A stretch of 14,385 nucleotides of DNA from a virus. Taxonomy: Duplodnaviria; Heunggongvirae; Uroviricota; Caudoviricetes. The translations under genes were made by a program, and so were the position numbers. The notes under the pieces are model-generated. The model did not search any database. It was not told the DNA's origin and was given only the letters and a program-made list of their open reading frames with translations. Below, in pieces: positions 8,966 through 9,658 of this stretch. The stretch lies in IMG/VR virus record IMGVR_UViG_2713896833_000003, positions 1 through 14,385 of that record. One strand, written 5' to 3'. Numbering within the stretch: the stretch's first letter is position 1; the number at the start of each line of letters is the position of its first letter.

Positions 8966-9658
8966 ATGAACATAGGAAACCGAGTCAGACAACTTCGCCA
9001 GGCGAAGAACATGAAAATCGCCGATCTCGCTGAAGCAATAGGAGTGGATGCGGCGAATATCTCACGCCTGGAAACAGGTAAGCAGAAACAATTCACTGAA
9101 CAAGCCCTGAGTAATATTGCCAGGAGCTTAGGTGTTGATATTGCTGATCTCTTTACCTCAGACGTCAAAAGTAATACTGTATGTAAAAACAGTATTAGTG
9201 AGGATGTTGCGCAGGTGAAGGATGTATTCCGTATTGAAATGCTGGATGTCAGTGCCAGTGCGGGAAATGGCCTTATCCAGGGCGGTGATGTCATTGATGT
9301 GATTCATGCCATTGAATACAGAACTGATAATGCTGTATCGATGTTTGGCGGACGGCCAGCCAATCACATTAAAGTTATCAACGTTCGTGGGGACAGTATG
9401 TGTCCAACCATTGAGCCAGGAGATCTCATCTTCGTTGATGTCAGTATCAATCAGTTTGATGGAGATGGTATCTATGTATTTGGTTTTGATGATAAAATTT
9501 ATGTCAAACGACTGCAAATGATACCTGACAAACTACTGGTGATTTCTGATAACCAGATTTACCGTGAATGGGGAATTACCAGCGAAAATGAACACCGGTT
9601 TATGGTCTTTGGAAAGGTCTTAATCAGCCAGTCACAAACCCTTAAGCGACACAATTAA
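8966..9658 (+). CDS. CI-like phage repressor (XRE HTH plus S24 LexA-type autopeptidase domain)
   Basis: N-terminal HTH IADLAEAIGVDAANISRLETGKQ; Ala-Gly candidate cleavage site (SASAGNG); Ser nucleophile in VRGDSMCPTIEPGD and Lys in YVKRL; 230 aa. Confidence 0.85.
   Translation: MNIGNRVRQLRQAKNMKIADLAEAIGVDAANISRLETGKQKQFTEQALSNIARSLGVDIADLFTSDVKSNTVCKNSISEDVAQVKDVFRIEMLDVSASAGNGLIQGGDVIDVIHAIEYRTDNAVSMFGGRPANHIKVINVRGDSMCPTIEPGDLIFVDVSINQFDGDGIYVFGFDDKIYVKRLQMIPDKLLVISDNQIYREWGITSENEHRFMVFGKVLISQSQTLKRHN
9173..9196. promoter_or_regulatory. Consensus SOS (LexA) box palindrome AATACTGT-ATGTAAAA-ACAGTATT located inside the cI coding sequence
   Basis: Matches CTGT-N8-ACAG with AT-rich spacer and extended TA flanks; perfect 8-bp inverted arms; falls in codons 70-77 (linker between HTH and S24 domains). 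Confidence 0.45.

Follow-up and report, generated by a model that had tools for sequence, protein, structure and literature searches.

What is a LexA-type operator doing inside the coding sequence of a phage repressor gene? The question is raised by a stretch of 14,385 nucleotides (nt) of Caudoviricetes DNA, positions 1 to 14,385 of the IMG/VR record IMGVR_UViG_2713896833_000003, which as a whole we call the window. The element is a lambdoid prophage, and the gene in question is its cI repressor gene (8966–9658, plus strand, 230 amino acids), identified from the list of open reading frames (ORFs), from Pfam and from the annotated cI genes of mEp460, SfII and Stx2a phages. Its product, CI, has a helix-turn-helix (HTH) domain at amino acids 3–64, a hypervariable linker at about 65–86 and a Peptidase_S24 match at 104–218. 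The Pfam matches are PF00717 (E = 6.4e-19) and HTH_26, HTH_31 and HTH_3, which are of the Cro/CI type. The cleavage-site residues Ala99-Gly100 (9260–9265) are invariant in the 58 representative homologs described below, and the motifs around Ser144 (GDSM, 9395–9397) and Lys181 (VKRL, 9506–9508) align with the GDSM and VKKL of UmuD. By its HTH and S24 domains, its Ala-Gly site and its Ser/Lys dyad motifs, CI appears to be one of the self-cleaving S24 repressors of the LexA and lambda CI type.

The palindrome AATACTGTATGTAAAAACAGTATT, read from the sequence at 9173–9196, lies inside codons 70–77 of cI, between the HTH and S24 domains, and its 8-bp inverted arms are perfect (AATACTGT-N8-ACAGTATT). 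All of this agrees exactly with an earlier note on the same DNA, which had described the palindrome as an SOS box. The 20 nt from 9175 to 9194, TACTGTATGTAAAAACAGTA, form the LexA operator-like site proper (no strand), and 9173–9196 is the extended palindrome. The core CTGT-N8-ACAG has a single exact match in the whole window, at 9177–9192, when 0.18 are expected from shuffled sequences, close to the estimate of about 0.2 per window in the earlier note, and the spacer ATGTAAAA is A or T at seven of its eight positions. The match to the LexA consensus, also claimed in that note, holds as well: The 20-mer differs at three positions from TACTGTATATATATACAGTA, the 20-bp consensus used being TACTGT(AT)4ACAGTA, and three or fewer mismatches were reached by none of 200 shuffles. 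In fact, the 20-mer is only one base different from the operator of umuDC in Escherichia coli K-12, TACTGTATATAAAAACAGTA, which we read from the K-12 genome 20 nt before umuD. The umuDC 20-mer itself is carried exactly by 24 of the 122 distinct cI alleles we have collected. By these counts, the box is far beyond chance.

A second LexA box, as looping would need, is absent within 3.5 kb on either side in 57 of the 58 representative loci; the remaining one has a weak LexA-like site with four mismatches, about 3.5 kb upstream. A separate observation in the window is a weak LexA-like 20-mer at 4475–4494, ATCTGGATATTTAAACAGTG, with the form CTG-N10-CAG and six mismatches to the consensus. It is found about 23 nt upstream of the start codon of a methylase gene, and could be a second, weaker SOS box or an autoregulatory site of the methylase.

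Homologs of cI were gathered by protein similarity from GTDB genomes (Shigella, three Citrobacter, Pseudescherichia, Klebsiella, Buttiauxella and Trabulsiella) and from IMG/VR, and no seed peptide covered codons 70–77. The 257 loci obtained (the window and 256 others) contain 122 distinct cI nucleotide sequences, which code for 88 distinct proteins. A set of 58 representatives, less than 97% identical to each other in nucleotide sequence, was used for most counts; the representatives are related, so these counts are not independent events, although elsewhere in the gene the synonymous sites are close to saturated. The motif CTG-N10-CAG is present at nt 210–229 of the gene in all 122 alleles, from at least six enterobacterial genera, in 34 box variants.

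This conservation is seen at positions where the protein leaves the DNA free to vary. Thr71 is always ACT and Ser76 always AGT in the 58 representatives, and Val72 is GTA in 56 of them; in contrast, Ser98 is AGT in 29 and AGC in 29. Codon 75 may code for Asn, Asp, Ser, Tyr, His or Thr, with C as the third base in every representative. Codons 70–76 have a mean third-position entropy of 0.23 bits, compared with a gene median of 1.43 (permutation p ~5e-5), the lowest of any window of seven codons in cI. The box is placed in the most variable part of CI, with a nucleotide diversity of 0.157, compared with 0.505 and 0.570 for the flanks of the linker. The earlier note had said that a box varying freely at synonymous sites in cI homologs would tell against it; the synonymous sites are in fact frozen, and the linker on both sides is hypervariable.

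Variation within the box is not uniform either. Positions 2–8 and 16–19 are invariant in the representatives, whose profile is T-A-C-T-G-T-A-T-(A/G)-T-A-W-W-N-(A/C)-C-A-G-T-(A/G), and the 34 variants differ only at positions where the LexA motif is tolerant. The profile is shaped like a LexA motif, not like a uniformly conserved patch. A sister clade around Cronobacter phage ENT47670, with about 50% amino acid identity, has a box at the equivalent place in all of 53 further distinct alleles; these include further sequence variants, which also differ only at tolerant positions. On the other hand, the box is absent from eight other cI families, with at most 43% identity or with another N-terminal domain: Turner, HK022, Mulock, PHL101, Stx2_95, HK639, Omnitron and P22-like c2. 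From these alignments, we consider it very probable that cI contains a LexA operator which is selected as DNA.

Both strands of the 58 representatives were scanned with position weights, the box serving as the anchor. TTTACN-17-TACTGT is the sole consistent promoter-like arrangement on either strand, with a mean of 7.0 bits, while the 99th percentile of the background is 4.9. In the window, the predicted -35 element is TTTACC (9152–9157, plus strand), in codons 63–64, which code for Phe-Thr; it is followed by a 17-bp spacer (9158–9174) and by the predicted -10 element TACTGT (9175–9180, plus strand), which is the left half of the box. Transcription would start near A9187, as judged from the spacing only. 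The spacer has a hypervariable sequence without any indel in the 58 representatives, and indels are found a few codons downstream. The same layout, a -35 element, 17 bp and a TACTGT which opens the box, is found in two SOS genes of K-12: Both umuDC and sulA have TTGATC-17-TACTGT(box) in the K-12 genome. We take TACTGT to be the -10 element of sulA and umuDC from its position and from the literature.

The ENT47670 clade (loci L271 to L326) presents TG at positions -15/-14 relative to TACTGT, 3 nt upstream of the box, in 43 of 53 alleles, a feature found in none of the 58 representatives of the main family. Its sequence at the -35 position is poorer, TTCTCT instead of TTTACN. The TG looks compensatory, an extended -10 element which would make up for a weaker -35.

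Codon usage just upstream of the box was also noted (9137–9160 in the window, codons 58–64). Among the representatives, Leu62 is coded by CTC, CTA, CTT or TTA, or the codon is TTC, never CTG, and Phe63 is always TTT. This pattern may be part of an upstream promoter element or an AT codon bias. A similar AT bias is seen at other Phe and Asp codons, and we have set aside the invariance of the Phe63 codon as a proof of the -35 element.

Putative signals for translation are found after the promoter-like elements. A Shine-Dalgarno (SD) sequence is conserved about 10–20 nt downstream of the box, followed by an in-frame start codon. When an SD is defined by a pairing energy of -4.5 kcal/mol or lower, 57 of the 58 representatives have an SD and an in-frame start in codons 83–96; the median for other windows of 14 codons is 1.7%. 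The predicted start is usually codon 87 (9224–9226 in the window), at the beginning of the C-terminal domain; it codes for the Val in Asp-Val-Phe/Tyr-Arg. This codon is GTG in 43 representatives, ATG in five and TTG in one. GTG makes up 83% of Val codons at this place and 18% elsewhere, the highest value of 18 Val columns. The strongest pairing with the anti-SD sequence in cI, outside a conserved Gly-Gly, is located 5–9 nt upstream of codon 87. It is kept through 35 different linker peptides, in forms such as GAGGG, AAGGA, GGAGA, CAGGAG and GGGGGG. The ENT47670 clade has a stronger form of this signal, for example AAGGGGAGGA 5 nt before GTG or TAAGGAG 6 nt before ATG. Relatives without a box, which have a homologous C-terminal domain joined to another N-terminal domain, have Tyr at the position of codon 87 and no initiation signal.

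In the window, the SD-like sequence is GAGGA (9200–9204, plus strand), in the linker, 10 nt upstream of the GTG at codon 84. The predicted nested ORF runs in frame from this GTG to the cI stop codon (9215–9658, plus strand, about 147 amino acids). The predicted short CI contains the whole S24 domain, with Ala99-Gly100 and the Ser144/Lys181 motifs, and lacks the DNA-binding domain.

Other candidate products were discarded. The alternative-frame ORF 9306–9521 (plus strand) and the antisense ORFs 8935–9294 and 9158–9517 do not stay open across the family. Met92 was rejected as an internal start: Val, Ile, Leu or Met is found there, many codons are GTA, and there is no SD. Two genes considered as stand-alone C-terminal-domain genes, H112 and H120, turned out to be a full-length repressor that has a different N-terminal domain, and a disrupted c2.

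We propose that the box controls a LexA-repressed nested gene which expresses the C-terminal domain of CI alone during the SOS response, a reading to which we give a probability of about 0.55. Operator, promoter-like geometry, predicted transcription start, SD and in-frame start would together make up a complete SOS unit in the linker of cI. In this proposal, a host LexA operator overlaps the -10 element and the start of a sigma-70 promoter that lies within cI, in the sequence for the linker. In an undamaged lysogen, LexA would hold the internal promoter off; when activated RecA (RecA*) depletes LexA, the promoter would fire, presumably late and only in deep SOS, since the operator is near-consensus and umuDC-like. 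The short mRNA would have its own ribosome-binding site and an in-frame GTG or ATG, at codon 84 in the window and at codon 87 in most relatives. Its translation would give the C-terminal S24 domain of CI without the DNA-binding domain. What we observe is the box itself, its extreme conservation in the shape of a LexA motif, its independence from the LexA paralog discussed below, a promoter-like geometry and conserved signals for an internal start of translation; LexA occupancy, promoter activity, the short protein and its action are all what we infer from these.

What the short protein might do is a further step. S24 repressors dimerise through their C-terminal domain, as established for LexA and lambda CI, and poisoning of subunits appears to be the most economical function for this reason. 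The short CI would form mixed dimers with full-length CI, or compete with it otherwise, and repression would be weaker. The outcome would be a LexA-gated push towards induction, added to the self-cleavage of CI. That cI holds its own SOS-inducible antirepressor in this manner, with a LexA-gated short CI which poisons CI dimers and gives the switch two SOS inputs, is a tentative suggestion, to which we would give somewhat worse than even odds. The short CI might possibly also poison the repressors of co-resident phages which share the C-terminal domain. As a variant, the unit may descend from an umuD-like SOS gene fused to an HTH domain, the old promoter and operator having survived in the linker.

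Several points weigh against a nested gene of this kind. By a count of hexamer positions the promoter is weak, as TTTACC agrees with the consensus at four of six positions and TACTGT at three of six; a generic promoter scan of the window did not list TTTACC-17-TACTGT. The -35 element shares its place with conserved codons for Phe-Thr and might be there by accident, and the compensation between TG and -35 rests on essentially one lineage. The start codon arrangement of the window is less typical than in most of the cI family: Its codon 87 is GTA, like that of 83 among 150 close relatives, and its qualifying start, the GTG at codon 84 (9215–9217), has a rather long SD spacing of 10 nt. In one representative (L211), no start qualifies. 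A purine-rich linker can look like an SD sequence, and the co-occurrence of box and initiation signals rests on few independent lineages. As to function, a C-terminal-domain product could equally be protective, as a decoy for RecA*, which would give the opposite sign; this is the main alternative for the role of the short protein. None of the rival explanations accounts for the conserved initiation signals.

Of the two mechanisms which the earlier note had offered, the internal promoter is the one favoured by the promoter layout and by the SD and start downstream. The other, a roadblock or attenuator, is unlikely. LexA bound within cI would partly block the polymerase coming from the maintenance promoter, and no internal promoter would be used; there would be less CI in undamaged cells, and SOS would raise CI, which would buffer the switch against transient damage. 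The operator is in fact a very strong site about 210 nt inside a transcribed gene, and such an effect could coexist with a nested gene. However, a roadblock leaves unexplained the SD and in-frame start, the fixed 17-bp spacing and the geometry shared with sulA and umuDC. It could also sit anywhere in the gene, and cI must be expressed with LexA present.

The internal promoter might have an RNA as its product, either by read-through beyond the terminator of cI, which would reach the leftward early operon, or as a regulatory RNA. We regard this as quite unlikely. The evidence for operator and promoter is the same, and the terminator-like hairpin after cI (9679–9696, plus strand, from a consensus scan only) has only a modest T-run. 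This hairpin is likely the 3' end of the cI transcript and of any nested one. However, translation is suggested by the conserved in-frame initiation signals. No Rfam family matches, the RNA structure of the predicted 5' region is not unusual (z = 0.16), and CI bound at the OL operators lies downstream.

An antisense SOS promoter, in which the right half of the box would serve as a minus-strand -10 element for transcription against cI into cro and the lytic operon, is very unlikely. The box is symmetric, its minus strand reads TACTGT in 38 of 58 representatives (those with A at position 20), and LexA would gain direct control of cro. Yet the scan of the 58 representatives gave no consistent -35 element on the minus strand, where the region is hypervariable and contains indels. 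Position 20 is G in 19 of 58 representatives, and the sense-strand SD and start would be left unexplained.

A different question is which protein binds the box. The earlier note had pointed to a LexA DNA-binding-domain paralog coded by the same element, and this gene is real: It is located at 5955–6281 (minus strand), its 108 amino acids match PF01726 (E = 3.7e-19) and align with residues 2–89 of E. coli LexA, and it has no protease domain. Its recognition helix, RSvNAAvEHL, keeps most of the RSPNAAEEHL of LexA. The paralog is present in 61 phage records with several immunity types, usually beside dam and rusA. The link between paralog and box, on the other hand, is not supported, and we have rejected the paralog as the partner of the box on its distribution: It is found within 3.5 kb of cI in only three of the 58 representative box-bearing loci. 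Its dam/rusA module sits in phages of other immunity types (SfV, cdtI, Stx2c phages and SfIV), which match only the first 144 bases of the cI-region query and lack this cI. Nor is the paralog among the records listed for Klebsiella, Salmonella and Cronobacter phages which have a box. That the paralog, and not host LexA, is the chief ligand is a highly improbable reading, in spite of the recognition helix and of its presence in the same element.

The box is constantly accompanied by the cI-cro module. All identified hosts belong to the Enterobacteriaceae, which share the LexA motif CTGT-N8-ACAG. Host LexA is the likely ligand, because the box travels with cI-cro and not with the paralog, in enterobacterial hosts. 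During lytic growth, the paralog could be a binder of SOS boxes that cannot be cleaved. At the position of the LexA cleavage site, it reads AGE.

Finally, the absence of any regulatory role (a chance palindrome, protein constraint on Thr-Val-Tyr/Cys-Lys-Asn-Ser, or a patch promoting recombination between repressor domains) is scarcely credible: Thr71, Val72 and Ser76 are indeed invariant amino acids, and the linker is a mosaic junction, with a C-terminal domain shared with repressors having other N-terminal domains, but synonymous sites are frozen, the third base of codon 75 is fixed while its amino acid varies, variation follows the LexA motif and not uniform identity, and the chance expectation is practically zero.

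The surroundings of cI are those of a lambdoid switch. A cro-like gene (8608–8868, minus strand, Pfam HTH_3) is divergent from cI, and cro is found at a fixed distance of about 98 bp upstream of box-bearing cI in 56 of the 58 representative loci. The intergenic region (8869–8965, no strand) has the CI-type operator TTGC-N7-GCAA at 8931–8945. Two other copies are found at 9714–9728 and 9738–9752, so that there are three in all when 0.57 are expected. These copies are likely the CI operators, one in OR, between cro and cI, and two in OL, just past the cI terminator. They are unlike the LexA box and unrelated to it. The cI gene itself has no SD; TGTAAT ends 7 nt ahead of its ATG (8954–8968), and it may be that the maintenance transcript has no leader, like that of lambda PRM.

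The cI-cro region has 96–99% identity with mEp460, with several phages derived from ECOR13 and with Stx2a-converting phages; for Shigella phage SfII the identity is 91%. The allele group of the window is found in 1040 of 5426 complete E. coli genomes. We have rejected ymfK of the e14 element of K-12 and the "ymfK" of UTI89 as the same gene: They code for a different repressor and have no box, and YmfK of e14 has 38% identity with CI in a local match of only 39 amino acids.

A few other features of the window should be mentioned. A protein coded at 7723–8061 (minus strand), in the cro/cII operon, is 98% identical to YmfM of e14 in K-12, annotated as a cell-division inhibitor, so derepression of the prophage should also block host division. 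The prophage contains an EcoRII-type restriction-modification pair (1728–4452), which consists of an endonuclease with EcoRII-N/C domains (1728–2942, plus strand) and a C5-cytosine methylase with a DNA_meth_N regulatory domain (2977–4452, minus strand). An ORF for a LEM-3-like GIY-YIG nuclease (4817–5356, plus strand) and the 3' end of a DUF968 ORF on the other strand (5272–5958, minus strand) overlap, and the gene boundaries in this part are uncertain.

If the proposal is true, induction of these phages, Stx2a-converting phages included, would be set by two SOS inputs, RecA-stimulated cleavage of CI and LexA-gated poisoning of its subunits. Induction thresholds, and hence the release of Shiga toxin after SOS-inducing antibiotics, would have to be modelled differently for box-bearing phages. 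The cI gene would also show clearly that the sequence for a protein linker can carry regulatory signals and a nested gene, and intragenic LexA sites in chromatin immunoprecipitation data could then be functional. The key mutations can be made without altering the CI protein, so the idea is directly testable.

How does this unit compare with known systems? The closest are umuDC and sulA. The operator is one base from that of umuDC, and identical to it in many alleles; the layout of the predicted promoter is the same, followed by an SD and a start. The predicted short CI is also like UmuD, an S24-only protein of about 140 amino acids with a cleavable N-terminal tail. The C-terminal domain of CI is 36% identical to UmuD over 83 amino acids, and UmuD is its best match among solved structures. 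The difference is that the cI unit is embedded in frame inside the coding sequence of another gene. None of the ORFs scanned, whether downstream of cI or in the rest of the window, is umuC-like; the unit is not part of an umuDC-type operon, and its likeness to UmuD is limited to the S24 fold.

LexA-controlled antirepressors are known in coliphage 186 (tum), in Gifsy/Fels phages and in N15 (antC). Lemire et al. (2011, PMC3121763) describe phage antirepressor genes gated by host LexA, which couples induction to SOS apart from self-cleavage of the repressor. The proposed likeness is that host LexA would gate a phage product which inactivates the prophage repressor. The known antirepressors, in contrast, are separate genes for unrelated small proteins, usually in phages whose repressors do not cleave themselves. 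In the cI unit, the candidate is the C-terminal domain of the repressor itself, and this repressor has the Ala-Gly/Ser/Lys cleavage apparatus.

Other systems share one feature or another. Hex of phage 434 is a second protein coded on or overlapping the cI region, which modulates RecA-dependent induction (PMC3564112). It resembles the short CI in being encoded with or over cI, but it is expressed from the PRM transcript in the lysogen, overlaps the repressor gene only partially, stabilises lysogeny and is not controlled by LexA. In Tn5, Inh is an N-terminally truncated in-frame product with an internal promoter and start, which lacks the DNA-binding end and poisons through mixed oligomers; LexA weakly represses the transposase promoter. 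The difference is that a transposase is not a repressor, and that LexA acts on the full-length promoter and not on the internal one. In CTXphi, host LexA binds phage DNA within the lysis-lysogeny switch. The same is described for GIL01 (PMC4551915). In both cases the sites are in intergenic promoter regions, and LexA is the main repressor or a co-repressor of lytic promoters, whereas the site in cI lies within a gene, in a phage with a CI/Cro switch of its own.

We have found no description of a LexA box inside any cI gene, or of a nested promoter and start for the C-terminal domain of a repressor, in full-text literature, a scope which leaves most subscription journals outside. LexA-controlled antirepressors, direct LexA control of phage promoters, a second protein over cI and a truncated inhibitor from an internal promoter are all known already. 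Textbook lambdoid induction has one SOS input, the RecA-stimulated self-cleavage of CI; the alternative already known is a distinct antirepressor gene under the control of LexA. The common repressor family described here, found in E. coli genomes, in phages of Shigella, Citrobacter, Klebsiella, Salmonella and Cronobacter and in Stx2a-converting phages, appears to join both solutions, its LexA-controlled unit being concealed within the repressor gene itself.

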